Shown piece after piece: positions 21,820 through 63,666 of a stretch of 64,000 nucleotides of DNA (its first letter is position 1; the number at the start of each line of letters is the position of its first letter). Made by a program: the position numbers and the translations under genes. Source of the stretch: a virus; the IMG/VR virus record IMGVR_UViG_3300005683_000016, positions 1-64,000 of that record; one strand, given 5' to 3'. The notes under the pieces are model-generated. The model searched no databases. It saw nothing but the letters and a program-made list of their open reading frames with translations, and was not told the DNA's origin.

Positions 21820-23880
21820 TTATCCTTTTACTACTGTTGCTTTACCTGTTGAATCAATGATTATTTCTACTCCTTGTGGAGTTTTTGCCAAAACCGCACC
21901 ATTGGGAAGATTTTTAACTGGTACAGCATTTTGGGCATATTGTTGCATTTCCATCTCTTTTTTCTTAAGAGCATCTTGTTTATTCCCCAAGAAGTCAATA
22001 CGACCCGTGATAGGATTTACACGATAGTTCTCAGAATTAAGTTGGTTTTTTATTCTCGTTTCTTCTACATAATCTAAATAATTGCGAATGGAATTGACTA
22101 CTCGTGATTTCTGTTGAGCATGAAATTGATCTTTAAGATAGTCTACTCTTGCTTTTTGTTGATTGTATCTTTCAACATCTTGAAAGTGTTGATCTATATT
22201 ATTGTTGATGTAAGTTTGAAGTTTTTCGGTATCTTGGTTTATCTTGGTTTCGTATCTCTGAGCGTTTCCAAATGCAACCTTTGCTGTATGGTCTTGATAT
22301 TGAGCATTAAGATTTGCTATTCGTGCTTGCTTAACTTCTTCAGGCATATTAGAATTTTGAATCTGTTGAATATTAAGTGCCAAGTTTCTACCTGCTTCTT
22401 TATCATCAAAGTCTACAAAACGAGAAAATAAAGGGGATTTTCTTAAGTCTCGATACTGAGGGTTTTGAACAGTAAGAGAATCTCCTAAAGCAAGTCCTAC
22501 ATCCAATATAGTTCCTGCCAACTTGTGACCTATACCAAAAGGATTTTTAGACTCTGTTTCTGTGTTTTTAGAAACGGTCTGTGAAGAATTAGAAGTACGA
22601 TTAAAACTAACCGAAGATGGATTTGTGCTTTTTACAGACGTGGGTATCGCTAAAGAAGGTATAGGATTTAGAGGGTTAACCGAAGTTCTCTGTTGTGATA
22701 CAGGTTGATTTGATGGAGTGTTTGTTCTGGTTCTTACAGAAGGTGTTTTAGAGGGTAGGGGAGCAACACTGGTATCATTGGGGTCTACCACATCCAAAGT
22801 TTTAGTTGCTGGAGGTAGAACTCCGTTTCCAAAATACACAGGACTGGTTTTTCTGTTGGGAGAACTCGCCATAGTAGAAGGTTCTGTTTCTGTTACCACC
22901 AAATCATACTTGGAACCTCCGGGATAAACAGGTCTTTTACCAGTTATGGTTGCTTCTGGTAATTGATTGTACATTGCTTTGATTTGTTGTAAAGGGGTAA
23001 GTTTTTGTTCTATTGTAAGTTCCTCAACGTCTTTACCCATTTCTATATCTTGGCGGGTGTCCCAAAAAGAAGTATACATTTTCTTTTGAGGTAACACAGG
23101 CCCACCATATTGATATTCAGAGTTTTTTCCAGACTTCATCTTTTCTTCTTCTTGAGTTTGGAAAATTGTCTCAAGCATTGCTAAGTTACCTGACATTTTA
23201 AGTTTAGCAGTTTCCTTCTCATATTGATCAGAGTCTGGATTTTGTAAAATCTTAGACCATTTAGTAGTGTCAAACTTCTTACTTAGGTCAGCATAAGACA
23301 TTTTTTTCTTAGTCTCTTTACCTAAGACTGTTTTAATAAGTTCTTTTGGGGCGCTGCTAAATTCGCTAAAAATTTTACTACCACCTTCAGCAAGTATATC
23401 AATACCTCCGTTAGCATGAGTATTACCATTAAAACCGTATAACTCACCATTGGGATTTAAGATTGTTTCTTTATCTTCTACTTCGATGGGAGTAAGTCCA
23501 CCCTGTTGATATTTTTTCCACATAGTCATTCCTCCCTTGAGAAACATTTCTTGTTCATTTGAACCAAGGGATTCAATATAGTCTATAACTTGATCCTGTT
23601 CATCTTCTTCGAGAGAAGAAAGATAAGATTCAAATTTATTTATAAGTCCACCTTTTTGTTTTTTATTCTTCATAGGTATTTCAATTACTGACTTTGTATT
23701 GAAAAGGTAATTTTCATTTGGTTTCATCATTTTAAATGAACCATCATCTAACACACCAACCAAAGGTGTTGATACATTTTTCATAGAAATGGAAGGAGAA
23801 TTTATTTCTAAATAAGGACTGTCTAAGAAAGGACTATTATTTCTATATCCGTATTTATCTATTAATTTTTGAATTTCCAT
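21820..23880 (-). CDS. Internal virion cargo protein with xxGG repeats
   Basis: GYRNNSP...ISMKNV domain, IEVEDKET...GNTHANGGI motif, repeated QKGG/QQGG/QYGG, and a S/T/P-rich linker. Confidence 0.7.
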   Translation of the reverse strand: MEIQKLIDKYGYRNNSPFLDSPYLEINSPSISMKNVSTPLVGVLDDGSFKMMKPNENYLFNTKSVIEIPMKNKKQKGGLINKFESYLSSLEEDEQDQVIDYIESLGSNEQEMFLKGGMTMWKKYQQGGLTPIEVEDKETILNPNGELYGFNGNTHANGGIDILAEGGSKIFSEFSSAPKELIKTVLGKETKKKMSYADLSKKFDTTKWSKILQNPDSDQYEKETAKLKMSGNLAMLETIFQTQEEEKMKSGKNSEYQYGGPVLPQKKMYTSFWDTRQDIEMGKDVEELTIEQKLTPLQQIKAMYNQLPEATITGKRPVYPGGSKYDLVVTETEPSTMASSPNRKTSPVYFGNGVLPPATKTLDVVDPNDTSVAPLPSKTPSVRTRTNTPSNQPVSQQRTSVNPLNPIPSLAIPTSVKSTNPSSVSFNRTSNSSQTVSKNTETESKNPFGIGHKLAGTILDVGLALGDSLTVQNPQYRDLRKSPLFSRFVDFDDKEAGRNLALNIQQIQNSNMPEEVKQARIANLNAQYQDHTAKVAFGNAQRYETKINQDTEKLQTYINNNIDQHFQDVERYNQQKARVDYLKDQFHAQQKSRVVNSIRNYLDYVEETRIKNQLNSENYRVNPITGRIDFLGNKQDALKKKEMEMQQYAQNAVPVKNLPNGAVLAKTPQGVEIIIDSTGKATVVKG

Positions 23881-24974
23881 AAATAATTATTATAAGAGAT
23901 GTTTCTTTTTATAGCATAATAAATTTTATCTCTTCTGTATCCTTTTTGTTCATAACTGGAAATTATATTTTCCTCTATTATAGAAAATTGATCTATATCA
24001 ATTTTTTGTATTAGTTTACTTTTAGACTCCCTCATTTTATTTTTACTTTCTTTAGAAAATTTGGCTCCTTTTCTATTTCCCGGATATTTACCTGTTATAT
24101 GATTTATAGAATGGTTTTTTAAAAATTCCAATCGTTCGTCTAAATCTTTTATCTTACAGATACTAAACGTATTATTTACAACTGATCTTTTAGATAGTAA
24201 AGATTTATAAAATTTTTTAACAGATATATTTAAAAGTGTGTATATGTCTTTTGGGGAATGATACAAACATACTTCATGTGTAAATACATTTATTAAAGCG
24301 TACTTATATCCAGTGAAAGGAACCACTCCTGTTTCAGACGGCAAATAATATGTTCTTAAATTTTTTTTCTGAATTATTTTCTTTATAACTTTTATATCCA
24401 TATTTAATAACTCAGAAATATATTTTGATGGATAATTTTTAAGTCTATATTCTTTTACTAAAGATATAATTTCAGGTGTTAGTCCACTTCTTTTTAGACC
24501 AGACTTTATAGCAGACTCTTTCTTTCTTTGTTTAAACTCCTCAGTAGAAAATGTCTTTTTTAAAGATTCTTTATGTTTTAAGGATTGTTTCTTAGTCAAT
24601 TTATATCCTTTATTAGAGTCTACTATTTTCCTAATACTATAAACAGGATTTAATATATCAGTAAATTTTTGTTCTAATTTTGTTAAATATTCTTCGGGAC
24701 AAATACCCAATATTTCAATTGTAAAATTTTGTATTCCGTGTTTTATAATAGCCTTGTGTATTACTTGACAATCTTTTTGTTTAACCACATTATTGTAATG
24801 CCCGTTCCAACGTGAATATAAATTTTTAGAACTTCCAATATAACATTTGTTATTTGTTATATTTGTAATCTTGTAAATTCCACATCTATTGAGAAAAGAC
24901 TTTCTTTCAATAGATGGAATATTGTTGAAAGATATTTTAAGTTTATTTTGAAATTTTATATAATAATTGTTCAT
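23862..24974 (-). mobile_element. Free-standing GIY-YIG homing endonuclease with NUMOD3-like repeats
   Basis: CGIYKITNITNNKCYIGSS...R...H; FSKESKNKMRESK; locally lower GC. Confidence 0.9.
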
Positions 24975-25139
24975 TTATTTCTTTTTAGACCACCTCTTTG
25001 TGTTTTGTGCAAAGACTGCTCTCCTTTTTGTAACTGGATTTTTACTATGAGTAAGTTCTTCTGTAGTTTTACCTGTACGTTTTTTAGTCTCGTTGAACTT
25101 ACCCCTATTCTCAGGTTTAATTTTAATTTTGTTTTTCAT
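24975..25139 (-). CDS. Small basic protein (54 aa) with a crAss-type IKPENRGKF...RAVFAQNxxxW motif
   Basis: Not in the ORF track. Translated by hand: MKNKIKIKPENRGKFNETKKRTGKTTEELTHSKNPVTKRRAVFAQNTKRWSKKK. It exactly fills the gap between two endonuclease genes. Confidence 0.8.
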   Translation of the reverse strand: MKNKIKIKPENRGKFNETKKRTGKTTEELTHSKNPVTKRRAVFAQNTKRWSKKK

Positions 25140-25148
25140 AATAAATAT

Positions 25149-25967
25149 TTAAGCGAGTTCACCCATTTTTTCATCAATGTGTAATAAAGTGATTTGTTCT
25201 GTACCAAATGATTCAAACATATCTATCCACATTTTGGAGGGATAAAATTTTTGAAATCTAATGTTGTTTACAACAGTTTTTCTTCTACAACGAGAATTTA
25301 AACTATAAACATTAAGACTATATTTTTCAGCACATTCTTTTAGTCCAAAAATTACATCAATAAGATTATTTTTTTCGTTATAAACACAAATATATACATT
25401 TTTTCTACTGCGAGATGCAACATAAGGCTTTAAATTCTTTTGTTTGGTTTTAAAAAACAAATATCCTTTTAGTTGAATACCTCTAAGTAGAGCATTCATA
25501 ATAGAGTTTCTATTGAAATTAAAGTATTCTGCGCATTCTGGTACACTATTCCATGTACCTATATAGTTTCCTTTTACACAATAACAATAAACTCTTCTCC
25601 CATATTTTTTTCTTACTGTTTTAATTCTACGTTTTAAAACTTCTCGTGACCATTCAGATATTTCCCCGCCTATAGTTAAATTAAATCCGTATTTATTATT
25701 ATTTGATCTATAATAACTGATCCAATACCGTTCCCTATCTCCAATAAAGATGTTTTCTATATTATTTTCTATTATAGTAAAAGAAAATACACTATAGAAA
25801 TCTTTATTGCTATACTTGTTATAGTGTTTTTGTAAGTATATATTGTAATGAGTTCCCTTTTCTAAAGATCTTTTATGATCACATTCTCTGCTGGAAATAT
25901 TTTTAGTTTTCCCAATATATACTTTATTATTTATTTTACTTCTAATCATGTATATATACTGACTCAT
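25149..25967 (-). mobile_element. Free-standing GIY-YIG homing endonuclease with NUMOD1-like HTH repeats and a ferritin-derived C-terminal tail
   Basis: YIYMIRSKINNKVYIGKT...RERYWI...YGFNLTIGG; C-terminus WIDMFESFGTEQITLLHIDEKMG. Confidence 0.9.
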
Positions 25968-25968
25968 A

Positions 25969-26517
25969 TTATACCATTTTTCCTAATTCAATATCTATTA
26001 ACAGCAAAGAAGTCTTATCATCTCCAAATGAATCTATCATGTCTATTATTTTAAGGGTCTTTCCAACTTCTTCACTTTGTTCTTGGGTAAGTTTTAAAGC
26101 AATAGGATAAAGCATTAACTGGTTTTCTTCAAATGCTGCTTTGGCAAGTTCTGCACACTGATTATAAACTTCAATCTCGTGTTGGTAACTTAAATTAACT
26201 ATTTCTACTAATCCAGTAAAATCTTGTTGAGGTTTTGGTAATTCAGGAGTAACAGGTCTGATACCGAGATCAAGTAAAAAAGAATAAATTATTTCTGCAT
26301 GAGTAAGTTCTTCATCAGAATATTTTTTCCAAAGTTTTGCTGCTCCTACATAACTCTTATCGTCCAACCATCTGGACATAGCAGAGTAAATACGGGAACT
26401 ATATTCTTCTTGTTGAATCCTGTAATTGCACAAATCAATCAATCGTTGACTGATTAGTTTGTCGAATTTGGGTTCAGGATTCTTCATTTTATCCAATATT
26501 TTTTTGCTGTCTATCAT
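25969..26517 (-). CDS. Ferritin (non-haem, FtnA-like)
   Basis: QQEEYSSRIY, DEELTHA, HEIEV and EQSEE ferroxidase-centre pattern; 182 aa. Confidence 0.85.
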   Translation of the reverse strand: MIDSKKILDKMKNPEPKFDKLISQRLIDLCNYRIQQEEYSSRIYSAMSRWLDDKSYVGAAKLWKKYSDEELTHAEIIYSFLLDLGIRPVTPELPKPQQDFTGLVEIVNLSYQHEIEVYNQCAELAKAAFEENQLMLYPIALKLTQEQSEEVGKTLKIIDMIDSFGDDKTSLLLIDIELGKMV

Positions 26518-28004
26518 TTTGTATTACCGTATATTTTTTTGTAAATAGTTGGAGATTCTCTCTTGGTCTGACGAAGTATAAGTTCGTTAAGTTCTTGGGA
26601 AGTAAGATCTTTCATTCTTTTGTTTGCTATCTGAGGATACAGGTCTGCTCCATAACCACTATTAGACCATCTTTTCATGGCATCTCCAACTGTAAGATTG
26701 GCATAACTACCAGAAGTTAATAAATCTTTCTGGGCTTGTAATCCTGCTTTCACCGAAGGAAAAACCGCAAATATCCCACCATCTGTTGCTGCTCTTCCCG
26801 GTTGTGCTCCATATTTTTGAGCAAACTTTCCATACTTTATGTTTCCGGGATTTGAGTGGGTTGTTGCAATATCTCCTTTGGGAACGTTTACGGATTGATA
26901 AGTAGAATGATAAATATCATTCGTAGTATAGGTATCCAAAGGATTCTCCTCAAAAAGCCAAGATAAAAGATTAGAATTCTTTTGCATTTCTTCTCCCGGA
27001 GAAGTCGAGGTAAGGAAGTTTTGAATTTCGTTCTCTGAAAAACCCTGATCTTCTACAGGAGATTGGAAATCAGAAGAGTACAAAGATTCTGTATCCGGTG
27101 CTTCTATTTCTCCTCCTTCTTGTTTTTCTCTTACCCAATTATCTCGTCGTCTTCTTTGTTGCCAGTTTCTATCTCTTAATGTAGTAAGTTTTTGAGAATC
27201 GGCACCATACATTTCTTTCTTATAGTCTTTATATGCTTCTATATCCGGCATAATTGTATTTTTTATATATGCTTGTTGTAAGGGATCTATTTTGGCAGGA
27301 TTTTCTCTTCCAAAAAATTCCACTCTCGCATCTTCTCTCCTTACTCTATCTGGAATAATTAAATGATCCAGTTTATTTGTAGCAACAGGTTTTACGAAAG
27401 TGGATTCTGGAATAATTCCTCCTTTTTGCAAAAACCCAAGCAGACCAGTTGCTCCTTCAAATATATTTCCAAAAGCATCTTTTTTAGTATTGTTTGCTTC
27501 TTGTTCCAATCTTTCGTTTTTATCCTTATATATGTCTGAAAGATGTTTTTGGAGCATCTTTGAGGACTGCTCTTGTTGGTTGTAAAAGTCCATAAACAAA
27601 TCCATCTGACCTCCGTTCTGATAAAAAGGAACATTCAACCCCTTCCTTGCAGTAAGATTATCAGTTCTTCCGGTAGTGTACGGAGTTATATAAAAATTGT
27701 TTGCTCTGGCCTTTTCTCTTCTCTGTCGAAGATCCTCAGCAGAAGCACTTTCATGTATATTTTGAATTCTTTCTTGTCTGTTTCCCTCGAAGATTCCTGC
27801 TATACCTCCTATTATTTGACCAATTGAACCAATAACAGGAAGGCTATCAATAAAAGAAGATTGCTCCTTTTGTTTTTGTGAATACAAAGGTTTTTGTGAA
27901 AACACATCGGAATCTATATAAGATACAGAATCTCTTATAAAATCTCCATATTGAGCCTTTTTCTTTTTTAAAAAAAGTTTCGATCTATTGGTTAAGTTAG
28001 ACAT
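26514..28004 (-). CDS. Cargo protein with xxGG repeats and a C-terminal lysozyme-like (virion peptidoglycan hydrolase-like) domain
   Basis: HSNPGNIKYG...FAVFPSVKAGLQA...Y..LTVGDAMKRWS; YQNGG/LQKGG/KQEGG repeats; no Cys. Confidence 0.65.
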   Translation of the reverse strand: MSNLTNRSKLFLKKKKAQYGDFIRDSVSYIDSDVFSQKPLYSQKQKEQSSFIDSLPVIGSIGQIIGGIAGIFEGNRQERIQNIHESASAEDLRQRREKARANNFYITPYTTGRTDNLTARKGLNVPFYQNGGQMDLFMDFYNQQEQSSKMLQKHLSDIYKDKNERLEQEANNTKKDAFGNIFEGATGLLGFLQKGGIIPESTFVKPVATNKLDHLIIPDRVRREDARVEFFGRENPAKIDPLQQAYIKNTIMPDIEAYKDYKKEMYGADSQKLTTLRDRNWQQRRRRDNWVREKQEGGEIEAPDTESLYSSDFQSPVEDQGFSENEIQNFLTSTSPGEEMQKNSNLLSWLFEENPLDTYTTNDIYHSTYQSVNVPKGDIATTHSNPGNIKYGKFAQKYGAQPGRAATDGGIFAVFPSVKAGLQAQKDLLTSGSYANLTVGDAMKRWSNSGYGADLYPQIANKRMKDLTSQELNELILRQTKRESPTIYKKIYGNTK

Positions 28005-31000
28005 TGATCAGATCTTGATTTGGAACTATAAGTTGTAACAATATTTTGTGATCGGTGTTTGTTTCACTTCTCAAGTGAAGTTTTACCCACTTCCCTTTTA
28101 TGTCGCTTCTTTGATGTGGCGGTATAGAGTTTGAAGTGGATTGAGGTGTATAATCCATACCATTGTCTGAAAGAAGAATCAAAGGATTGGAATTGTGATT
28201 TATTCTTAGATTTTCAAACTTGTTGATTCTAAACACGGAGTCTTGAACTCTGGTTACTTCTGCAACAACAGGATTGGATTCGGTATTCTGAATTAAAGAA
28301 TGGTTGGGATTGTTAAGGTTTTTAAGGTAAACATCAAGAAGCCCTGTAGACCCGTTATTGTTGTAGGCAAAGATTTTGTCAAAAAATTTGTTTGTTTTAT
28401 AAACAGGACTGCCATATACCTCTTGAGTATAAAATTCTGAAAACACTTCGATATTTTGAAGTTCAAGATTTTTGTACTTGTTGTTTATGACCATTCCAAC
28501 ATCAAATGGTACTTGTTCGTCGTAATAGGTTTGATAAGTAAACTCCTTGTTGTGCTTCCATATTCCAAATTCGTTTACTGTCAAATAAGTGTTCGGGTCT
28601 ACCAGAAAAAACCTTGGAGTAAAGGAGTGAAAACTTATCCATGATTCCAGTTTTGGTTTATAGGAAAGACACCACGGTTCTCTTTCTGAATATCCTCTTA
28701 TGTAAAGATTCTCTGTGTAATTGTCAAAAATTATAACTATGGTGTTATCTTCATATTCTGATCCTTGATTTCCAGTATAGTGTTGCAACCAAGACTGCAT
28801 AGTTCCAGTAATATCCTTTAAAGAACCGTTCCACTGAAACATCTTTCTACGATAACGATCAAAAAAGAAAGTACCATATCTTGTGTTGCAAAAGGACAAA
28901 GGATCTACACAACCCACATATCCCGTTTGTTCATTTGAAAGTCTTCTAAGCCTGTTTGTAAATATATCCCCTTGTGTCAACAATAAAGAATTTCCTTCGG
29001 TCGTGTTTAAGGAATAATTGAGTTGGGAATAAAGAATATTGTTTTCAAATGCAAAAAAGATGGAGTAGTCATCGGTGTAGTGCATTCCTGTAAACTCACC
29101 AAACACCCTTGGTAAAACAGCATAATTTAAAGGAAGAAATTGAAGCCATCTGTCATCTGTTGATTGAGGGTCGTCTTTTAAAGAGTAGGACACGATAAAA
29201 TCGTTATCTGAATCTGTGGGATCAGAGTTTCCGTATACTCTTTCAACTTCATTGGAAAGAAGGGAAAAGTTGTATAAAAACTTGTTGTCGAATCTAATTT
29301 TATCTGTTTTTGATATATCCCTATAATCTATTTTTGGATAAAAACTACCATTTGGGGTAAAGTCTCTTTCACGATAATCACCTATAAATTCTGATTCACA
29401 CCAAAAGTTTATTACTCCCGTAACAAAGACATAAAACAATCCCTGTGCATCGGATCCGACTCCATCCACATAAGGAAGAAAAACATTGTCCAAGTTGTAG
29501 TGCCATCCAGATTCTTTTACAAATTCGGTATCTATCCAAAATCTCGGATACCATAGATTTCTGTTTTCCCTGTAATCGAATTGTGTATCTATTGGTACGT
29601 CTTCCAACCACTGTTGACATATTGGCATTTTTCTCAAAAGAGTATGCTTCGATATAAATACGTCTCCAGCATATATCACATCGGAATCAAAAGAAACTTC
29701 ACCCGAAGTTACCTGCTTAAAACAACCTACTGGACGATAGGATATAGAATCTATAGAACCATATTGATTTGGTTGTTTTACTTTTATTCCTACATAGTAG
29801 GAAACTCCCTGAACGTTTAGATCATTTCCCGCATATCTATCAACCGTATTGAAATAATTGAAGGCAGGAAAATCCTTTGAATATCCATCGGAGGAGACTT
29901 CAGATGCAAGAACCCTGCTGGTGTCCAAAGATACAGTATCCGACAACAGCCGATCTATTTCTACATAGTAGGAAGATTCTCTAAGATTGTTGTTGATTTT
30001 TTTGTTGTTGGAAGCAATCTGGTTTATCGGTAAAAGATATTGACTCGAATTTATTTTAAACCTTGACGCAAGAGGAAGACTCCAAGGAAGAAAGGAAGAA
30101 TAGTTGCACACACTGTTCATTTGTGCAGCATGATTTCTATAGTTTGCAAGAAGTGCAATATCATCAAATGGAAGAAGTTCAGTTCCAAGTCTTGTCAGAG
30201 GATGAAGATACACATGATCAAATTTTCCTTCGATCCAGCCTCTTGATTCCCCATAGACCTTCATTTCGGTTCCAAACTCTCTTTGTATTTCCCTGAAATG
30301 AATATCGGGAGAGTGATAAGTAAAATCCTTTCTTGAGAAAGACTGGGGAGGAATCCAATCAGCATCGTATCCCTCACTTCCATCAGCATTTATTGCAGTT
30401 GGTCTTGTTGATAAGAAGACATCAGGGTGGAGATCGTTAAAAGGATAATTAGGATAATAAATCGTTGTCTCGGGAGTGGAGAAATCTTGTGTCATATTGA
30501 AGACAAGTCCTTTATGCAATACTGACTTGTTTCCCTTTCTGTCCCCTACGAGGATTCTATATCCAGATATATCTGGATCTGGAGTCATATCCGGTAAAAG
30601 AGGATACGGGATGTTTTTAAACCTAACCCCAAGTACATTGACACAATCGCTTTCCTTTACATAAGATTCTCCAGAGGTGCAAAATTCTATTTCTGGAAAT
30701 CCGGGAAAATTTATATCTATACAAGTGACATCCTGAAATTCTTCTGAAAAATTATTGTGAATATGTGTCAGATCGTGAGATGGCATTCTGTGGTGTCTTA
30801 TTGGTTGACACGCCAGATCCCCCCAAATATCGGGATCGTTGGGATAAGTAAATTCTTGACTTTCCCAATATCCCATTTTTCCAGACTTGTTGATTACTTC
30901 TCCTGAACAGTTCTGACATTCGTACTCGTTGTCCACTTCAATGGTGGCGGTATTTTCTATTTGCCAATACTTGAGGGTGGCAGGAACACAGTCTTCCAGT

Positions 31001-32187
31001 TCATAAATATCGGTAGTATTGTAGTCATCTCCTGTGTACTCTATTACGTCTCCAGAGGTAGATTGTCTTCCAACAATGGAAAAGATTCCTCTGGAGTTTC
31101 CTTTTAAACCAACCCACTCTAAAGAGAACGAATAAACTTCGTCTCTCATCAAAGAGGGATAGAAGGGAGCCAGTTCTTTGTCTATAAGAACCTCTACCCA
31201 CTCTGTTTCTATTTCAAGGGCTTGAGGTTGATAATTCAGTTTTTCTAAGTTGGCGTGTCTTCCCAACATAAGAATCTCTCCATTGGTTACTATGTGCTTG
31301 GAAGAATCAAATGCCACTTTCTTTTGAAGTGCTTGTTGAGTTGAGAATATCGTTGCGTTGTCTATTGAGTCTATCGTAAACTTATCGTTGGATACAGGGA
31401 AAAAACCAAGGTTATAAGTCACAAGAGAATTTTCTCTTGTATTGGTGACAAGTACAAGAGCGTATTGTGTAAAGGGAACATCCTGACATCCTATCTCTAC
31501 TTTCAGACCTATGTTGGAAGATTCCGAAAAAACCTTTATTGCCGAACTAAAAGTAAAATCCGTAAGAACCACATTGTCTATTGCGTAAGCAATCCCTATT
31601 TGGTACACTCCGCTCAACAACTTTCCTTCTTCTGTTTTTGTAAGATTTAAACAAGGTTTTATATAACTTTTGTTGATCTTGACTGCTTCACAATCAAAAT
31701 CAGTAGAATACTCTACGTCGCAGTTTTCACACCTTGAACTAAGAGGTCTTTTTGGATATTCTTTATCTATATCAAAATATCTATTGGGATTCTCTCCATC
31801 TACTATATAAACTCTCCTATCATTGTTTTTATTGTTGTATTTGTAGACTCCACGAATGTACCATTCAAGATTCAAACAGGGGTCGTTTGCCCATAGAGAG
31901 TAGGAACAATCGAGAGAATTCAATATTCCGAGTTCATAGGAATCAGGAGTTTTGAATGCCACAAAATGTTCATATCTTCCCAATTTGACAGAACCTTTAA
32001 ATTCATAATCTTCTGGAAATTCGTAACAAAGTTCGTTACCCAACTGATTGACAACAAACCAATTATTCCCTTCGTTGTCGAATACGTCCCCATTTAGCAA
32101 AAAAGTCAAATCCCTGTCCTCAAGCAAGGAAGGGTGTACATCGTAATTCAATTTTTGTCCAGCAGTTTGCTTAACAGAATCTACCAT
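27997..32187 (-). CDS. Tail stabilisation/muzzle protein (crAss-type)
   Basis: 1396-aa beta-rich ORF. LMRDEVYSF, PIRHHRMP, NYPFNDL and WISFHSFTP motifs; follows the ring-protein genes. Confidence 0.8.
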   Translation of the reverse strand: MVDSVKQTAGQKLNYDVHPSLLEDRDLTFLLNGDVFDNEGNNWFVVNQLGNELCYEFPEDYEFKGSVKLGRYEHFVAFKTPDSYELGILNSLDCSYSLWANDPCLNLEWYIRGVYKYNNKNNDRRVYIVDGENPNRYFDIDKEYPKRPLSSRCENCDVEYSTDFDCEAVKINKSYIKPCLNLTKTEEGKLLSGVYQIGIAYAIDNVVLTDFTFSSAIKVFSESSNIGLKVEIGCQDVPFTQYALVLVTNTRENSLVTYNLGFFPVSNDKFTIDSIDNATIFSTQQALQKKVAFDSSKHIVTNGEILMLGRHANLEKLNYQPQALEIETEWVEVLIDKELAPFYPSLMRDEVYSFSLEWVGLKGNSRGIFSIVGRQSTSGDVIEYTGDDYNTTDIYELEDCVPATLKYWQIENTATIEVDNEYECQNCSGEVINKSGKMGYWESQEFTYPNDPDIWGDLACQPIRHHRMPSHDLTHIHNNFSEEFQDVTCIDINFPGFPEIEFCTSGESYVKESDCVNVLGVRFKNIPYPLLPDMTPDPDISGYRILVGDRKGNKSVLHKGLVFNMTQDFSTPETTIYYPNYPFNDLHPDVFLSTRPTAINADGSEGYDADWIPPQSFSRKDFTYHSPDIHFREIQREFGTEMKVYGESRGWIEGKFDHVYLHPLTRLGTELLPFDDIALLANYRNHAAQMNSVCNYSSFLPWSLPLASRFKINSSQYLLPINQIASNNKKINNNLRESSYYVEIDRLLSDTVSLDTSRVLASEVSSDGYSKDFPAFNYFNTVDRYAGNDLNVQGVSYYVGIKVKQPNQYGSIDSISYRPVGCFKQVTSGEVSFDSDVIYAGDVFISKHTLLRKMPICQQWLEDVPIDTQFDYRENRNLWYPRFWIDTEFVKESGWHYNLDNVFLPYVDGVGSDAQGLFYVFVTGVINFWCESEFIGDYRERDFTPNGSFYPKIDYRDISKTDKIRFDNKFLYNFSLLSNEVERVYGNSDPTDSDNDFIVSYSLKDDPQSTDDRWLQFLPLNYAVLPRVFGEFTGMHYTDDYSIFFAFENNILYSQLNYSLNTTEGNSLLLTQGDIFTNRLRRLSNEQTGYVGCVDPLSFCNTRYGTFFFDRYRRKMFQWNGSLKDITGTMQSWLQHYTGNQGSEYEDNTIVIIFDNYTENLYIRGYSEREPWCLSYKPKLESWISFHSFTPRFFLVDPNTYLTVNEFGIWKHNKEFTYQTYYDEQVPFDVGMVINNKYKNLELQNIEVFSEFYTQEVYGSPVYKTNKFFDKIFAYNNNGSTGLLDVYLKNLNNPNHSLIQNTESNPVVAEVTRVQDSVFRINKFENLRINHNSNPLILLSDNGMDYTPQSTSNSIPPHQRSDIKGKWVKLHLRSETNTDHKILLQLIVPNQDLINV

Positions 32188-33092
32188 CTATTATTTAAAG
32201 GTCTTTTTGTAGGATGAGTTAATTGATTACCATGACCATATACAACTTGCTCAAACTTGGAATAACGATCATAAAAAGTTTTTCGAGCATCGTACATCTC
32301 TTTGAAATCTACTTGTTTTACAAAAGATCTTGCGTTAGCCTCCAACACAGCAAGTTCGTTCTTTGAATCATGGTATCTTTGTTGTACATCTGCGTCATTG
32401 TTCCAGTACATTACTTGAAATACTTTTTTGACACAAGCCCCCTTGATCCATTCTCTGATTCTTGCAAAGTCTGGAATTAACAAATCTTTCCCATCTATGG
32501 TATCTTTTTCCAACTTCTGAAGATACTCCATATAAATGTAACCTGTTTCAAAACCTGCTACTAAAAGTTTACTTGACAGGTCTATTTGATGTTGATGCAA
32601 AACACTTTTATTAAAGCAATTATTAGCACAGTAAGGTAAAGAAGAATTAGAAATAGATAAAGGAGCAAACTCCTTAAAAGTAACATCAAATGTTTCAAAT
32701 CTCTGAACTATTCCCCACTGATCCCCGCACTCATCTGTACACAAAGTCGACTTACCTGTAACCATGAAGTCAGCAATGGTTGAATCGCTGACTTCATACA
32801 ATTGAGGATTTTCTGTTGTAGTAGAGGTTATCTTGTAATCAAAACACGCTAATGCCAAGAGTAACTTATGAAAATCATCAGGTAAGGGAGACTTATAGTT
32901 GTCTACGAAAAGAGTAGTTTTTCCTACAGGATAAATCTTGGAACCTAACTTGGAAAGACACTCTGCTATCACTGGATATAAGTGAGAATTATCTACTACT
33001 GCTCTTTCAAAATAGACTCGTAGATCGTTCTTTACTTCAGCGAGTAGATCTTCAGCAGTAATAAAATTTACGTTCTTATCGAGATTGGTCAT
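32181..33092 (-). CDS. Tail ring/tubular protein
   Basis: LPDDFHKL and FETGYIYMEY...LLIPD motifs; adjacent to the muzzle gene. Confidence 0.7.
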   Translation of the reverse strand: MTNLDKNVNFITAEDLLAEVKNDLRVYFERAVVDNSHLYPVIAECLSKLGSKIYPVGKTTLFVDNYKSPLPDDFHKLLLALACFDYKITSTTTENPQLYEVSDSTIADFMVTGKSTLCTDECGDQWGIVQRFETFDVTFKEFAPLSISNSSLPYCANNCFNKSVLHQHQIDLSSKLLVAGFETGYIYMEYLQKLEKDTIDGKDLLIPDFARIREWIKGACVKKVFQVMYWNNDADVQQRYHDSKNELAVLEANARSFVKQVDFKEMYDARKTFYDRYSKFEQVVYGHGNQLTHPTKRPLNNRW

Positions 33093-33097
33093 AAGCG

Positions 33098-33811
33098 TTA
33101 AGGTGAAATTTGTCTTTCAATAGTATTGGCATTAGGATGTTCATCCGGTTTCAATTGGGTAATTGGAACCAACTCAGATCTTGCCATTTTAATGGCAGCA
33201 TCTTCCAAATAATCAGGAAGTTGCACTTTAGATCTCAGTTTGGAACCACAATCTCCACTACTTGAATCTATTGGAGGGTTGGAAATAGAGTTGTTGTTAG
33301 AAGTGTTACAGTTGAAATCTGCAAGATCTCCTTCAAACAACGCTGACAAGGACAACCAAGGATATTCATGTTTAGGAGTATAAAGAAATCCGTTGTGAAT
33401 AAAAGCATAATTCTCTCTATTAAAACGGACTTTGCTTTTTACTTCATATTGAAAAGGACTAACTATTACAAAAGTTCTGCTTAAGTCTGGTGTAGCCAAC
33501 CATCTGTAAATAATTCCGTCGTTACTTTCTATGAATTTGGGAAGTTTTCTTTTGGAACGATACACTTCACAATTGGTAGGTAGCACAAGACAATTGCAAT
33601 AAATAGAATTAACTGCTTCCATTTCTATACAAATGGGTTCCCACACATCAGACATGGAATAAATGTTACCGGAAGCAGTATCTTGTTTAAGCAACTGTTT
33701 CATGGCAGTCAAATAAGTATTCCACAAATATCTGTTTGAGTAGATAGAATCATCAGATACTTCTTTTATTGAGGAACGAAGTCTTGCTACCACTTCACCT
33801 ATAGTTGTCAT
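33098..33811 (-). CDS. Tail ring protein
   Basis: TIGEVVARLR...DDS...RYLW, RSKRKLPK, YAFIHNGFLY; crAss-like synteny. Confidence 0.65.
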   Translation of the reverse strand: MTTIGEVVARLRSSIKEVSDDSIYSNRYLWNTYLTAMKQLLKQDTASGNIYSMSDVWEPICIEMEAVNSIYCNCLVLPTNCEVYRSKRKLPKFIESNDGIIYRWLATPDLSRTFVIVSPFQYEVKSKVRFNRENYAFIHNGFLYTPKHEYPWLSLSALFEGDLADFNCNTSNNNSISNPPIDSSSGDCGSKLRSKVQLPDYLEDAAIKMARSELVPITQLKPDEHPNANTIERQISP

Positions 33812-33815
33812 TTTT

Positions 33816-34328
33816 CTATCTTAGAGATTTTATTAGATCAGTAGTTTCTTTTATTTTTTTGGGGTTTACTGCTTTTCGTTTAAAGAAGTCTAAGTCGTTT
33901 TCGTATTTAATCCAATGAAAAAATTTATCCTCCTTTATGCGACTGATAAGTTTATCTCTGAACAAACGAGCGGATTCAAACCTGTAACATAGTAACATTT
34001 GTAGTCTAAAACGTTCGAATTTTATATTCCACGCTAATTTATAATAAATGTTGTCTGTTCGTACCAACTTATGTTTTCTGTGTTTTTGTCTTTCAGTATC
34101 TATGTATTTAGCACCGATTATTTGAAGCCTACCCATTTTGTGAGGAAACTGAAAACCATCGGTAGTATCCAATATGACATCTTCTACGATTTCTCTAAAG
34201 GAAGATAGAATCTTTCTTATTGTCCAGTAATCAAATCCTTTCTCTTTAAGGTCAGGATGTCTTTTTTGAAACTCTCTCCATACTTCGTGAGAGATAGTTA
34301 TTTTATAATCATTGTATGCCTTGTACAT
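33816..34328 (-). CDS. IHF/HU-like protein (crAss tail-cluster type)
   Basis: Basic 170 aa; GFQFPHKMGRLQI, then W...YRF; position next to the ring genes. Confidence 0.6.
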   Translation of the reverse strand: MYKAYNDYKITISHEVWREFQKRHPDLKEKGFDYWTIRKILSSFREIVEDVILDTTDGFQFPHKMGRLQIIGAKYIDTERQKHRKHKLVRTDNIYYKLAWNIKFERFRLQMLLCYRFESARLFRDKLISRIKEDKFFHWIKYENDLDFFKRKAVNPKKIKETTDLIKSLR

Positions 34329-34357
34329 AATATAACTAATTCAGACTAAATTTCAAA
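34327..34357 (-). promoter_or_regulatory. Putative phage promoter TTTGAnAT-N12-AGTTATATTAT (copy 1)
   Basis: Same motif and spacing as 60695..60725. Confidence 0.55.
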
Positions 34358-34376
34358 GAAATAGGTGTAATGTTTA

Positions 34377-35474
34377 TTATGTGTAAAACAAGTAATGTTC
34401 TTCAATTGCGTTGTTGGTAAGGATGTCCATGCATACACCCTTGGTGTTTTGCATGAAATTGGTCTGTGACCATTTGGAAGAACCGTACATAGAGAGAACG
34501 TTCTTATACCTGAAAAATTCTCCAAACTGACAAGATGCTTGATGTTGATCCCCCTTGACTACATGAATGTATTTAGAACTGATTTGATGGGCATCTATAT
34601 ATCTTTTAAAATAAAGTTCGGTCTTTAAGTCCAAGGTAGAAGGTAGGGGATTTTTTAAATCTTCTGCATCCTTACCATGACATAAGATAAAACAATGATT
34701 ATCTATCTCAAAATGCTCGATAAATTTATCTCCTATGTAAACCTCTACATCTGGATATTTAAGATTTATTGCTGTCTCTAATGACTTGTTGCATATCCAC
34801 TCAAAATCCCCTCCGTGATTGGATTCTCCTGCTGTGATATAGGAAAGATTACACTTACACTTTTCTTGAATCGTATGAACAAAGTCCAAATGAACCTTCA
34901 TAAAAACAGAATAAACCTCACGATTGGTCATGTTTTGAGGAAGGGTATGACCTCCTCTTGTAGTTTTTTTATCAAATCCGTCCACGGTGTCTAAAAGATC
35001 TATAAGAACTATAGCATCAAATTGACGATTGTTATGAAGATCAATGATATGCTTTGCCAAAACAGTCATCCTTCTCTCAAACTCTTCAGCATTGTACTCG
35101 TTATCAAAAAGAGAGTTTTCTTTGGTCTGTGCTCCTATATGCTTGTCAGACATATAAACAAGTAGTGCAGAAGAAACATCTTCATAAACAGGTACGGTTT
35201 CTTGAACAGGAGAATAGGTTTTTAAAAAAGATTCGAACTCTTCCTTGTAGTTAACTCCGTCTCCCTGTTTGACCATAAAAGTAGATCTTCCTTTCTCTTT
35301 GATCCATTGAGCCTTGACATCCCAACCTTCTTTGATTTGTTCAAGTGCTTTTTCTTTGGCTTCTCTTACGAGTTCTTCTTCTACTCCCAAAGATTTGGCT
35401 ATAGAAGGAACTCCTTTTTCCAAGTAGGAACGATGTGCAATAAAATGTTGAACAAGTGTTTCTAAAGTGTACAT
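34377..35474 (-). CDS. Calcineurin-like metallophosphoesterase
   Basis: SDKHIG, DLLD, SNHG, CHGKD and KGDQH motifs. Confidence 0.8.
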   Translation of the reverse strand: MYTLETLVQHFIAHRSYLEKGVPSIAKSLGVEEELVREAKEKALEQIKEGWDVKAQWIKEKGRSTFMVKQGDGVNYKEEFESFLKTYSPVQETVPVYEDVSSALLVYMSDKHIGAQTKENSLFDNEYNAEEFERRMTVLAKHIIDLHNNRQFDAIVLIDLLDTVDGFDKKTTRGGHTLPQNMTNREVYSVFMKVHLDFVHTIQEKCKCNLSYITAGESNHGGDFEWICNKSLETAINLKYPDVEVYIGDKFIEHFEIDNHCFILCHGKDAEDLKNPLPSTLDLKTELYFKRYIDAHQISSKYIHVVKGDQHQASCQFGEFFRYKNVLSMYGSSKWSQTNFMQNTKGVCMDILTNNAIEEHYLFYT

Positions 35475-35500
35475 TCAGTGTGTTTTTGTAAAAAGTTGAA

Positions 35501-35531
35501 CAAAGATATGTCAAATCTTTCAATTAACAAA
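35501..35531 (-). promoter_or_regulatory. Bacteroidota housekeeping-type promoter
   Basis: TTTG-N19-TATCTTTG matches the -33/-7 consensus TTTG...TAnnTTTG; 26 nt upstream of the phosphoesterase ATG. Confidence 0.7.
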
Positions 35532-35558
35532 AAAGCCCCTCTCACTGTTGAGAAGAGC
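35529..35558 (-). terminator. Intrinsic terminator
   Basis: GCTCTTCTCA-ACAG-TGAGAGGGGC stem-loop followed by T6. Confidence 0.8.
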
Positions 35559-35589
35559 CTGTTATAACCAACAATCGGATTTTGCATAT

Positions 35590-36510
35590 TTAAGTGATGA
35601 AATAACTTATTCCAGAGAAGTATACATTTCCGTCAAGATTCACTCCTCCTGCTATATCATCAGCAGCGACAGAAACTATACCACCTGTAGTAATCAGTAT
35701 GCTTGCCCATCCATTTGAATCTGCATCTGTGCATCTTACATAAAAAGTCATATTATATGAAGGTCTGTATTCTACTGGAAGAAGAAAAGTTTGAGTAGAA
35801 TTTTCCCCATTCTTTACCGCACCAGAGATTTTTACTTCATTTCCCTTACGATGTATCCGTATAGGATAGCCCAAAACATCTTCCCAATCATTTTCAAGAT
35901 CTACACTTTCTGTATAGGTGACAAGTTCTCCTGTAAAGTTGTTGCTTACCACAAGCCACTGATAAGAAACGTCATTTATTTGTACGAGTTTAAGTCTAAG
36001 TACTTTGTGAACAGGATCGGCAAGATCATAAAAAGAATTGGTCGTAAGAAGAGGATTCCAACTGTACTGAATCTGTACGTTGAACTTGTAATTCAAAAAA
36101 GCAATCTGATTGTCTGTAACACTACTTATGTCCTTTATCAGGATTTCTTTGTTTATAAAGGCAGAAGTGGTGGGAAGGACTAAAGTATTTTCATAAGTAC
36201 CAGATGCTTCATCATCGGTAAACGTAAGCAGTAGTATTTTGGTAACATCCTCTTCTACAATAGTATAAGAATCTCCATCATCTGTTTCTCCATCAGAATG
36301 AAACTTTATGATCTTGGATGCCATTTCATTGTTACATTCTATCAATTGCAACAAGTCTGTAAGGGTTCTTTTATCACCATCGTCCACACTGGAATTTTCA
36401 AAACAAAGGGGGTCTTTATCATAAATGACACAGTCTGCGTTTACCGTAGAAGCACATCCGGTAGAGCAAGGAGTAATGGTTTTGGTTTGAGAGCAATTTG
36501 TACAAGTCAT
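35590..36510 (-). CDS. Cys-rich fibre/receptor-binding-like protein (paralog 1)
   Basis: N-terminal CTNC...VNADCV; C-terminal RKGNEVKISGAV...LPVEYRP...GISYFI. Confidence 0.65.
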   Translation of the reverse strand: MTCTNCSQTKTITPCSTGCASTVNADCVIYDKDPLCFENSSVDDGDKRTLTDLLQLIECNNEMASKIIKFHSDGETDDGDSYTIVEEDVTKILLLTFTDDEASGTYENTLVLPTTSAFINKEILIKDISSVTDNQIAFLNYKFNVQIQYSWNPLLTTNSFYDLADPVHKVLRLKLVQINDVSYQWLVVSNNFTGELVTYTESVDLENDWEDVLGYPIRIHRKGNEVKISGAVKNGENSTQTFLLPVEYRPSYNMTFYVRCTDADSNGWASILITTGGIVSVAADDIAGGVNLDGNVYFSGISYFIT

Positions 36511-36546
36511 TTTATTTGTCTTAAGAGTTGAGATTTAATTAATTGA

Positions 36547-37395
36547 CTAATCAACATACCAACTTACACCGAACAAAGAAAGATTTTCTCCACTCGTAAG
36601 ATGGGTTCCTCCCGGAAAACTAACTGCAATAAAGGTATTGATCGTAAGAAGTGCTCGATAAGGAGAAGCATCTACCGCTACCAAAAAATAACCGGAAGAA
36701 GAAGGTCTGTCTTTGGCATCAAGATTCAAAAGAGTTGTAGGGACATTTCCTCCAGTGACCATACCCTGCAATTGTCTTAGTTTACCGAGTCTGATAAGTT
36801 TGAGTTCTTCTACTATTTCCCAATTGCCCTCAAGATCTTCATCTGTGAACACTTGAACAGAGGGAGTTCCTATAGAAGGACTTGTTACCACCCAAGAGTA
36901 GTTGATACCGTCTTTTTTCAGATAAGTCAAGTACAAGACTTTGTGAGGCTCCCATGCAAGTTTATCAAACTCGTTTGTTTCCTCTTCTTGATCAAATACA
37001 ATGTTTTCAGAAAACTCCCAATATACTGTACCAGAAGGATCATAATCTACCGAAATATCTTTTAGGATAAGAGTTTTATCTATAAATTCCGCAGACTCTG
37101 GTAATGTAATGGTATAAGTAACATCGTTTGCACTATTGATGTCTCCGTTTAAAAGAAGAATCTTACAAGCATCCTCTGTCAGAATTTCGTAATCTCCTGT
37201 TACAATTTTAGCACTCCTTTCGCACTTATCCTCTCCTATCAGTTCAAGTATCGAAGAAAGAGAACGAGAAGATCCGTTGTTTACATTTGTCTCAAAAGGA
37301 AGTTTGTCTCCCTTATACTCTACACAATCTGCGTTTACAGTATAAGGACAGTCACAGTTTTCCAGACTTACTTTTTTGCATGCTGTACAAGCCAT
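36547..37395 (-). CDS. Cys-rich fibre/receptor-binding-like protein (paralog 2)
   Basis: Likely start MACTAC at 37395. Shares VNADCV, KILLL, LILKDIS and PHKVL with paralog 1. Confidence 0.65.
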   Translation of the reverse strand: MACTACKKVSLENCDCPYTVNADCVEYKGDKLPFETNVNNGSSRSLSSILELIGEDKCERSAKIVTGDYEILTEDACKILLLNGDINSANDVTYTITLPESAEFIDKTLILKDISVDYDPSGTVYWEFSENIVFDQEEETNEFDKLAWEPHKVLYLTYLKKDGINYSWVVTSPSIGTPSVQVFTDEDLEGNWEIVEELKLIRLGKLRQLQGMVTGGNVPTTLLNLDAKDRPSSSGYFLVAVDASPYRALLTINTFIAVSFPGGTHLTSGENLSLFGVSWYVD

Positions 37396-37459
37396 TTTAA
37401 ATAGTTTTTTTAAAAAACACATAAATATAAGTTATAGATATATGAATAAAAGATAACAA

Positions 37460-37924
37460 TTATTCAACAAAGAAAGATATACCATCAAGGTATAATTTGG
37501 ATGATTCTCCAGTTGGAGCAGTACCTGTAAAATAAAGTCTCAGATTTCGATCTACTTCGATCTTTAAAAATACGTTATAGGTTGTTCCTGTAAACTCGTG
37601 TGCCAAGGGAACAATTCTTCTTTCGGTTATTTTGACGGGTAAAGTTGCAATAACTGATTGAACATCTCCACCGGAAAGTTCTCCAGAAAGGTGATAAAGT
37701 TTACCTTTTTTGAGAAGTTTGGGCTGTCGAACAATAGTCCATCCAGTTCCTACAACAATATCCTGAACAGAATCTAAAGTTTCTTCCTGACAGCATAGTT
37801 TTTCAGAAATTTCCTTAAGCCAATCATTAAGAGTGTTACCTTCAAATTCAAAACATTTTGGTTTACGAAGACCTACTTCTATTACTTGGTTAGAAGATAT
37901 GGGATTTGTGTTACAGTTGTCCAT
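37460..37924 (-). CDS. Short paralog of the same C-terminal domain (paralog 3)
   Basis: GWTIV..PKLLKKGKLYHLSGELSGG...LYLDGISFFVE. Confidence 0.6.
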   Translation of the reverse strand: MDNCNTNPISSNQVIEVGLRKPKCFEFEGNTLNDWLKEISEKLCCQEETLDSVQDIVVGTGWTIVRQPKLLKKGKLYHLSGELSGGDVQSVIATLPVKITERRIVPLAHEFTGTTYNVFLKIEVDRNLRLYFTGTAPTGESSKLYLDGISFFVE

Positions 37925-37970
37925 GTTATTTAAGTTAATTAGTTGGTTAATAATTTAATAATTTAATAAT

Positions 37971-38909
37971 TTAATAATAAGAAGATACATTAGTATAAAT
38001 ACTACTTCTATTTGAAGATTGATTGGTCGGATAAACAATCAGTTCTTGAATTGATTCTGAGGAGTCAGCACTATCCGACCCAACCCATGCTGTAAACGTT
38101 CCCGATCTTGAAAAAGAAGCAAGACCTGAAGCAGACTCACTCTGAACTGAACCATCAATACGAATTTCAGCAGTTGACGCGTTTTGTACGATAGTTTCGC
38201 AAATATGCTGAGAATTGTCTGATACTGTTGTGTTCTTGTACATATATGACGAAACACCTTCAAACAAGGCATAAGAATTTGAAAAATCAGATCCAAAAAG
38301 AAGAAAATCGAGAGCAGTGTTATCACAGAGCGTATTTATAAAAGTGCTGGCAGACACTACCGAAATCCCGTATAATTGTGAAGAACCAGATACATCTGCA
38401 AAATCAACTGTTTCTGAAAGCGGAGTATCGTCCAATGAAAAAAGAGCAGGACGACTATTTTTTTCAAGAACAGAACCATTGTCAACTATTTGCCACTTAC
38501 TCATTGCGACATCAAACTCATATCCATTACCAGACTGGTCATACCATTTTATTACATATCCGTCTGTCCCGGAACAAAAAGTGGTCAACGCTGATTCATC
38601 GAGATCACCATCTGCTTCAAATCCTATGTCTTGGGTAGTGTTGTCTGAAGATCTTTGAACCCTGAGACAATTTCCCATATAAGAAGTAGAAAGTTTTCTA
38701 ACCGATAAAGCAAGTCCTGCTCCGGGATAATCATCAAGTATCCCTGTAAAGGTAGCCAGAGTAACACCGTTAACTTTTTTAATGTTTGAGTCAGAAACAG
38801 TAGATACTTTCTTAATGTCGGTATCTGTTACTCCATCTACTTTTTTGATGTCTTGAGAAGATAGAGGAAAAGAAATTAACAACAACAACAAAAACAACAA
38901 TCTTTTCAT
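37971..38909 (-). CDS. Signal-peptide protein with three IKKVxxV repeats and a GH54/ConA-like beta-sandwich domain
   Basis: MKRLLFLLLLLISFPLSS|Q; ALSVRKL...LRVQRSSDN..QDIGF...WYDQSGNG. Confidence 0.75.
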   Translation of the reverse strand: MKRLLFLLLLLISFPLSSQDIKKVDGVTDTDIKKVSTVSDSNIKKVNGVTLATFTGILDDYPGAGLALSVRKLSTSYMGNCLRVQRSSDNTTQDIGFEADGDLDESALTTFCSGTDGYVIKWYDQSGNGYEFDVAMSKWQIVDNGSVLEKNSRPALFSLDDTPLSETVDFADVSGSSQLYGISVVSASTFINTLCDNTALDFLLFGSDFSNSYALFEGVSSYMYKNTTVSDNSQHICETIVQNASTAEIRIDGSVQSESASGLASFSRSGTFTAWVGSDSADSSESIQELIVYPTNQSSNRSSIYTNVSSYY

Positions 38910-38922
38910 AGTGTGTTTATAA

Positions 38923-39618
38923 TTATTTTACTTCAACAATAGTTTGAGAAGGATTTAAAAATTCTTTTACCTGAATGTCATTATTGTTCTTTTTACTGAA
39001 CAAAGTATGAAAAAGAACATGGCATTCTTTACAAAAAGTAATTCCGTTATTTATATCTGTCCTTAATTCAACATGAGAAGCATAATTAAATATATGATGA
39101 GCATTCAATTCTCCACCTCTTTGTTTACATTTTTGACATGTATAATTATCTCTTTTAAATACTTCCTTTCTCCAAACTGTATCTGCTGTATATCTTTTTT
39201 GTTTTACAGGTGTTTTATAATTACCATCGACCCAATTAGGATGTTCCGAACCATAATATGTAGGTGGTTTATTACCGTTTAATAATGATTTTTGTCTTAT
39301 TTTGTTTTTATGGTCTTCTGATAAACTACCTGTTTTTAATCCTTTGTTCCAAGATTTACGTCCTTTATTAAAACTATTACAAAGCATTCTCGTACTTACT
39401 GCTTTGTTGTAACATTCTCTACAGCAGTATTTTCTTGGTCGTTTGTGCCATCTTCCTTTAGGTGTAAACTCTTTATTACATATTAAACAGTTTTGAACTA
39501 TTTTGTTTTTCTCTTTTAGAGACTTAGATTTTTCGTATCTAAGTTTTGCTTTCTCTCTAAGTTTTTCCCTGTTTAATATATAATACTCTTTTTGTTTGTT
39601 TTTATCTTTATAAGGCAT
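38923..39618 (-). mobile_element. Free-standing HNH homing endonuclease (zinc finger + NUMOD3 + HNH)
   Basis: CLIC...YCCREC; SEDHKNKI; RDNYTCQKC...AHHI...NGITFCKECH. Confidence 0.9.
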
Positions 39619-39624
39619 AATAAA

Positions 39625-62890: not shown

Positions 62891-63666
62891 TTATATTTCC
62901 ATTTAAATCCCGCTGATTTATGCGTTTTACCTCTGAGACAAGATATTACAGAAGTCTTACTTACTCCACAAAATTCAGCAGCATCTTTTATACAATTCCA
63001 CTCCTTAATAAAGTTTCCATCTAAATCATATTGTAATATAGACTTAGAGTGTTTACTACTACCTCTTGAAGGCCACGTTCCAGGACGTTTGTAGGATTCA
63101 ATTTGTAGTCCTTTATATTCAAAAAACCACATCGTATTTTTAAATTTCTTTAAATGTCCTTTTAAACATTTTCGTAAAGTATTATACGGTATTCCTGTGC
63201 CTTCGGAAGCAAGAATAATTGAATCCCATTTCTTTATAAAATCTCCCTGAGTAGAATATTCAAATACACATTTTACAGTATGATGATTACTTCTACCTTT
63301 ACTTTTAAAAAACTCTTTTATTTTTTCTACTCTTTGACTTTTAACTTTATCTGGTAGTTTAAATCCAGACGTTCCTCCCGGAACTACGTTATATCCATGT
63401 GTAACACTTTGATAATAATTTATCCAAAAAATTTCTCGTTTGTTCAAATTTTTCGCAGAACAATACTCTATAACATAGAAGAATAAATTTTCTTTTCCAT
63501 ATTTATTATATGCTCTTTGTAGTTTAGTGCAATTACTTTGATTTTTACTAAGATCTCTATAATGACTATTTTTTCTTGTTTGTAAATTTGTAGTTAACCC
63601 TATATATCGCTTTCCGTTAACTATATTAAATATACAGTATATTCCTGATTTATTTGTTAATTTCAT
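62887..63666 (-). mobile_element. Free-standing GIY-YIG homing endonuclease with two NUMOD1 repeats
   Basis: SGIYCIFNIVNGKRYIG; QYDLDGNFIKEW...AA...GFKWKY; ATGA overlap with terL. Confidence 0.9.

Follow-up and report, generated by a model that had tools for sequence, protein, structure and literature searches.

The closest described counterparts of the locus reported here are the gene hybrids that mobile endonuclease ORFs (mORFs) create in fungal mitochondria, known from atp6 of Allomyces macrogynus, from atp6, atp9, cox2 and nad3 of Glomus sp., from atp9 of Rhizopus oryzae and from cox2 of Mortierella verticillata (PMC3630166). In these hybrids, the 3' end of a conserved gene harbours an endonuclease ORF, with a copy of the C-terminal coding piece on either side. 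The inserted, diverged piece keeps the gene whole, the displaced downstream piece is closest to element-free relatives, and lateral transfer has been inferred from this contrast in identity (PMC3630166). The phage locus, in which a free-standing GIY-YIG homing endonuclease gene (HEG1) lies at the 3' end of a ferritin gene, has each of these properties, and the parallel with fungal mitochondrial genes that was drawn in an earlier note on this DNA is correct. The two arrangements work alike but belong to different lineages, the host here being a tailed phage and not a mitochondrion. Unlike some of the fungal hybrids, HEG1 is not fused to the upstream gene, having its own ATG 1 nt past the ferritin stop codon. 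Its ORF instead joins the displaced native tail in frame and takes over the stop codon of that tail. Cleavage by the Allomyces element has been demonstrated biochemically (PMC3630166), whereas cleavage by HEG1 is a prediction.

Among phages, the T4 genes for SegF and SegG (GIY-YIG) and MobE (HNH) are described in PMC2988022 and PMC2790892 as free-standing nuclease genes beside conserved genes, varying in presence among relatives and co-converted with flanking markers, with carrier immunity presumed to come from differences in target sequence. The ferritin locus resembles them in these respects. The T4 genes, however, lie between genes and leave no duplicated target end, whereas HEG1 lies inside a coding sequence for which it brings a substitute end. 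In the Aeh1 nrdA/mobE and T4 gene 60/mobA arrangements, a nuclease gene is inserted into a coding region without an intron or intein, as here, but the host gene is split and its two polypeptides reassemble (PMC2988022); the ferritin gene remains one complete ORF. As in ICP1 and other phages (PMC10448857), identical DNA gives way abruptly to diverged DNA at the nuclease cassette when related phages are compared. The free-standing phage nucleases described in PMC2988022 and PMC10448857 lie between genes or split genes, and a term search of both papers returned no mention of a duplicated or replaced gene end. A full-text literature search, with most subscription journals outside its coverage, likewise found no phage report of a 3'-end-replacement layout. 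Other known invaders of coding sequence are introns and inteins; on our reading, the locus represents a third route into phage coding sequence, gene-end replacement.

The window, a 64,000-nt stretch of DNA (positions 1 to 64,000 of IMG/VR record IMGVR_UViG_3300005683_000016), belongs to a virus record of 142,038 bp that is rated complete and encodes a portal, a large terminase (TerL) and a major head protein, together with two ORFs of ∼3,500 aa. We read the phage as crAss-like. Pfam and PHROGs confirm a ferritin and two homing-endonuclease-like GIY-YIG proteins near the locus (Table 1). Ferritin is encoded by one continuous ORF with its own stop codon, and HEG1 is borne by neither an intron nor an intein; a search of 23500-40500 against Rfam gave no match to an intron or other RNA family at E-values up to 0.1. 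The last 28 residues of the ferritin and HEG1 products align without a gap and in the same register up to the stop. We refer to the present ferritin end as tail A and to the C-terminus of HEG1 as tail B.

Table 1. Features of the ferritin locus and of the fibre locus, in window coordinates
Feature	Position	Strand	Remarks
496-aa gene	26514-28004	minus	first in gene order, upstream of ferritin
Ferritin gene	25969-26517	minus	182 aa; Pfam Ferritin PF00210, E 8e-18
Ferritin body, residues 1-153	26059-26517	minus	Pfam Ferritin, AlphaFold, Foldseek
Tail A, replacement ferritin tail	25969-26058	minus	29 codons + stop
HEG1, free-standing GIY-YIG homing endonuclease gene	25149-25967	minus	272 aa; Pfam PF01541
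GIY-YIG catalytic domain, HEG1 residues 4-99	25671-25958	minus	pLDDT 82-95
Possible NUMOD1-type helix-turn-helix, HEG1 residues 125-159	25491-25595	minus	weak hint
Tail B, displaced native ferritin tail, HEG1 C-terminus	25149-25232	minus	27 codons + native stop
Mobile block: last 15 nt of ferritin body + tail A + HEG1 + tail B	25155-26073	minus	
54-aa gene (p54), native downstream small gene	24975-25139	minus	resident context of tail B
Second GIY-YIG gene	23862-24974	minus	between 54-aa and 686-aa genes
686-aa gene	21820-23880	minus	last in listed gene order
Second layout: fibre replacement end + HNH gene + displaced fibre end	38923-39660	minus	
Replacement end of fibre gene	39625-39660	minus	
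HNH endonuclease gene	38923-39618	minus	Pfam HNH; just after 3,512-aa fibre gene
Displaced native fibre end	38923-38955	minus	read in frame by HNH gene

The nuclease is present or absent at one and the same site. In the contigs of close relatives that carry the ferritin P0002 (L078-L081), a homologue of the 496-aa gene is followed by ferritin, two bases and the next large gene, and the nuclease is absent. Four other assemblies (L082-L085, carrying the ferritin P0001) have a ferritin with tail A followed by the nuclease gene at 99-100% identity, and the cassette-bearing assemblies known, the window included, are five. By blastn, the ferritin body of the window (26517-26023) and tail B (25234-25145) both fall on the one ferritin gene that L078 has. 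According to junction alignments, the left break comes directly after the Gly-Lys codons of residues 152-153 and the right break within the two codons before the Met that opens tail B. An extra A at the junction, considered as a means of setting the nuclease frame, is not needed; an ungapped alignment with the break just before the Met fits equally well. A scan of metagenomes with the DNA of tail A returned one match, to the already known contig, and a scan of IMG/VR with the same DNA returned none; IMG/VR scans with either GIY-YIG protein found no relatives.

Alignment of both tails to endonuclease-free ferritins identifies tail B as the native one. When the HEG1 protein was used as a query in a collection of 5.8 billion proteins, it recovered nucleases and several ferritins that match only its last 27 residues. 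The nuclease-free ferritin P0002, which is identical to the window ferritin at 139 of 153 body residues (91%), agrees with tail B at 27/27 positions and with tail A at 11/29. At the DNA level, tail B is identical to the end of the L078 ferritin gene at 78/84 nt, all six differences being synonymous, and differs from tail A at 38/84 nt. Seven further ferritins, whose bodies are 67-78% identical, agree with tail B at 20-26 of 26-27 positions; the figures for P0006 and P0003 are 26/27 and 24/26. Tail B lies in its resident context, because it is followed by the native stop, spacer and small gene as in the nuclease-free L086, and the order ferritin, small gene, large gene is found in both L086 and L090. 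Judged by identity and gene context, then, the last 27 codons of HEG1 are the original end of the ferritin gene. The proposal in the earlier note that an element invaded the ferritin 3' end is supported, as the ferritins of L078-L081 end exactly with tail B, and the in-frame reading of HEG1 through the displaced tail to its stop, also proposed there, is seen directly in the sequence.

Comparison of the window with L082 delimits the block that has moved. The two are identical from 26073 to 25155, with 0 mismatches over 919 nt, whereas the ferritin body upstream of this stretch (26517-26074) has 41 mismatches in 444 nt (9%) and the 496-aa gene is only 33-90% identical. A single site, position 25154 in the last codon of tail B, differs at the other end, and beyond 25145 the DNA is unrelated. 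By our own arithmetic, the chance of 919 identical bases given a background divergence of 9% is of order 1e-38. A maximum-likelihood tree of ferritin bodies pairs the window with the nuclease-free P0002 (support 92/86) and places P0001 on the next branch (98/92), and the other members of the clade holding these three all have tail B. From the 919-nt identity and the tree it follows that the cassette is younger than the split of its carriers, and tail A is probably foreign to the history of the ferritin body. These comparisons indicate a recent transfer of the block between diverged phage backbones. They also support the suggestion that the element supplied a diverged replacement tail: tail A lies inside a block that is identical in a second lineage, and it does not resemble the tail of any ferritin that groups with this one by its body.

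The exchanged segment is a defined part of the ferritin fold. The AlphaFold model of the ferritin has a pLDDT of 93.6 and comprises helices A-E; Foldseek aligns it with bacterial ferritins at TM 0.86-0.96 and an rmsd of 0.9 Å, the values up to 0.96 being those for the Vibrio cholerae and E. coli proteins. With a four-helix bundle, helix E and the ferroxidase-centre ligands, the protein is a ferritin of the prokaryotic FtnA type. Residues E37, Y44, E70, H73, E114, Q147 and E150 are invariant in the ferritin alignment, and the invariant positions next to the break are E146, Q147, E150 and K153. The body breaks off within helix D, three residues beyond the last of the invariant ferroxidase ligands, and tail A codes for the remainder of this helix, for the turn and for helix E while keeping the family-conserved D159, F164, G165 and D175. 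The DNA just downstream of the break is strongly conserved in three nuclease-free alleles, whose proteins are 71-82% identical to that of the window, which makes this stretch a plausible candidate for the recognition site.

We consider it probable that the locus is an intron-less homing cassette that invades a coding sequence by swapping the 3' end of the gene. Three parts would make up the cassette, namely a replacement ferritin tail that ends in a stop of its own, the GIY-YIG gene and the native tail that was retained. During mixed infections, the uninterrupted ferritin gene of a co-infecting relative would be cut by the nuclease, presumably within or close to the codons that follow the ferroxidase motif on helix D and beside the DNA that is strongly conserved in endonuclease-free alleles. 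Repair from the cassette-bearing genome would then use the ferritin body as the left arm and the retained native tail as the right arm. Ferritin would remain functional, since the cassette brings a substitute for helix E and for the end of helix D in which the conserved residues are intact. The carrier would be spared because its working tail differs from the native one at those 38 of 84 nt, so that tail A is predicted to be cleavage-resistant, as the earlier note had it, and also because the retained native tail would lack the upstream half of the site. The nuclease ORF runs in frame into the retained tail and terminates on the native stop, with the putative benefit that the spacing to the next gene is unchanged. 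In-frame capture of the native tail could also occur by chance, at 1 in 3 per case.

Import of tail A, which would have come from an unsampled ferritin lineage, has one competitor, which we regard as unlikely. A single entry by illegitimate recombination might have duplicated the ferritin 3' end, after which the upstream copy would have diverged in place, selected both to keep ferritin working and to escape cleavage; no foreign tail would then have been imported, and the homing logic would otherwise be the same. Such an origin has been raised for some of the fungal hybrids (PMC3630166), and it is consistent with the features of the wider subclade that tails A and B have in common (a D-M pair after the conserved Ile, S-F-G and L-x-I-D). 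It also agrees with the donor search: among the best 120 listed ferritin matches in the 5.8-billion-protein collection, none has a closely matching tail, no donor lineage was found, and the best match to tail A outside its own allele P0001 is 15/29, in P0014. Divergence in place is less easily reconciled with the 16 non-synonymous codon changes that separate tail A from tail B, where tail B has none relative to its nuclease-free relatives, or with the likeness of tail A to a different subclade (P0009, P0010 and P0014), whose members likewise lack the Trp and have a Leu in the last turn but are only ∼50% identical to it. Both points discriminate poorly, as tail B could be refreshed again and again by homing.

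We infer that the block was moved by the nuclease and not by plain recombination. If the nuclease were inactive and the arrangement a fossil, the 919-nt block would have been spread by ordinary homologous recombination between co-infecting phages. The region is strongly mosaic, as this explanation would have it; exchange between lineages has affected the upstream 496-aa gene in its C-terminal domain and the 686-aa gene at its start. We nevertheless find it quite improbable: the HEG1 ORF is intact and encodes all the conserved GIY-YIG residues, and across four assemblies the gene has accumulated one or two substitutions only. Moreover, the stretch of perfect identity opens no more than 15 nt from the beginning of tail A and closes at the last codon of tail B, and thus coincides with the cassette.

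The same layout, with a nuclease of an unrelated family, is found a second time in this genome, at the giant fibre gene (Table 1). In the IMG/VR relative L096 (L096:1950-2075), the fibre C-terminal domain is 82% identical and the HNH gene is absent. Over their last 33 nt, the L096 fibre gene and the HNH ORF of the window agree completely, while the end of the window's own fibre gene differs from this native sequence at 9/33 positions. The HNH ORF continues in frame to the native stop and is followed by the start of the native downstream gene.

HEG1 itself has a GIY-YIG catalytic domain in its N-terminal part. The Pfam GIY-YIG match covers residues 4-92 (E 2e-7; 31.6 bits against a cut-off of 22.6 bits), the PHROG matches are to the homing-endonuclease families 7168, 314 and 5123, and the catalytic residues Y6, Y17, G19, R27, H31, E79 and N96 are all present in the alignment of HEG1 relatives. 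The AlphaFold model is confident for the catalytic domain alone, residues 100-272 having a pLDDT below 50, and the NUMOD1 match, at 17.8 bits, falls under the Pfam cut-off of 22.8 bits. A tblastn match between nuclease and ferritin that reached back to nuclease residue 193 (48%) was read as spurious, the extension covering DNA-binding repeats of the nuclease and not sequence derived from ferritin. Four further GIY-YIG paralogues, 30-41% identical to HEG1, are encoded in the genome (window 62887-63666, minus strand; genome 73564-73917, 110714-111256 and 114050-114451), and one of them, inside the window, adjoins the terminase gene.

No relative of HEG1 in the alignment has a ferritin-like end, and the ferritin tail is therefore not a feature of the nuclease family. 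This also bears on the idea that the ferritin-derived tail gives the nuclease a function, by joining it to ferritin assemblies or co-packaging it, or that the retained site serves as its own operator. Both cases in the genome are in frame, the retained tail encodes elements of ferritin assembly (helix E and the last part of helix D), and I-TevI binds an operator resembling its own homing site (PMC2988022). The HNH gene, however, keeps only 10-11 codons of the fibre, the model of HEG1 is unreliable in the part containing the tail, and the geometry of the insertion leads most simply to an ORF that reads on to the native stop. We therefore think a function of this kind very improbable.

The duplicate of the ferritin end at the end of HEG1, of equal length and register as originally claimed, is borne out statistically. 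The two ends are identical at 11/28 residues, for a BLOSUM62 score of 53, and at 46/87 nt. The identity has a p-value of ∼5e-6 over 200,000 shuffles, in which the score was reached 0 times. We also compared the gene ends of the whole 142-kb genome in every pairwise combination, aligning them from the stop codon (189 crude genes, 17,766 pairs). Ferritin and HEG1 are the top-scoring pair, with 59 against a 99.9th percentile of 24, and the HNH and fibre genes are second. Ranks 4 and 5 fall to three tandem genes (306, 291 and 154 aa; 35590-37924, minus strand) whose C-terminal ends are similar and which are probably paralogues. A chance likeness of the tails, or a duplication produced by misassembly, has practically nothing to recommend it, given the shuffle p-value and first rank, the 27/27 identity of tail B to independent nuclease-free alleles, and the recurrence of the layout in five independent assemblies, the four besides the window (L082-L085) refuting an assembly artefact.

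The two cases together raise the tentative possibility that a replacement end, a nuclease gene and a retained native end form a general, self-contained route by which free-standing nucleases of the GIY-YIG and HNH families enter phage coding sequences without an intron or intein. The native end might then be kept on purpose, as the right homology arm and as an in-frame terminus on the native stop that preserves translational coupling to the next gene. The locus offers complete material for comparison, namely an empty site, a filled site in two diverged backbones, the 919-nt cassette and a case from a second nuclease family, and it yields a directly testable target and a prediction of immunity. 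The layout would also account for a class of nuclease C-termini and hybrid gene ends that look odd when phages are annotated. Its signature, in which the end of the upstream gene is echoed at the end of the nuclease ORF, is computable and could be used to find active homing cassettes and their targets in metagenomes.

The ferritin neighbourhood is a hot spot for nuclease genes. LAGLIDADG-like ORFs are present in this region in relatives (L086:6494-7447 and L089:2667-3491), one of them directly upstream of ferritin. Neither of these two ORFs echoes the end of a neighbouring gene, and the layout is thus not universal. The second GIY-YIG gene of the window overlaps the start of the 686-aa gene by 19 nt and is absent from L078 and L082. 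We rejected the idea that it ends in a displaced tail of the 54-aa gene, since 0/120 listed relatives of the small protein end like the nuclease. The first ∼40 codons of the 686-aa gene (23755-23880) are strongly diverged from those of its relatives, after which DNA identity is 96%, and this diverged start may be a co-converted head.

Other genes of the neighbourhood are variable as well as conserved. The L078 homologue of the 686-aa gene contains an in-frame insert of ∼1,160 nt (L078:5590-6749), which brings it to 1,047 aa; the insert has no Pfam match, and no intein or nuclease signature was seen in it. The 54-aa protein has no Pfam or PHROG match. It is basic and belongs to an extremely conserved family, with a ∼45-aa core at 75-89% identity, that occurs in hundreds of phage contigs of up to ∼200 kb, many members having N-terminal extensions that end in K-K-G-G. 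The C-terminal domain of the 496-aa gene (26517-26900, minus strand) is unrelated to those of L078 and L082, the rest of the gene being 94% identical to L078; it resembles the domain in L086 and looks like a domain swap just upstream of ferritin.
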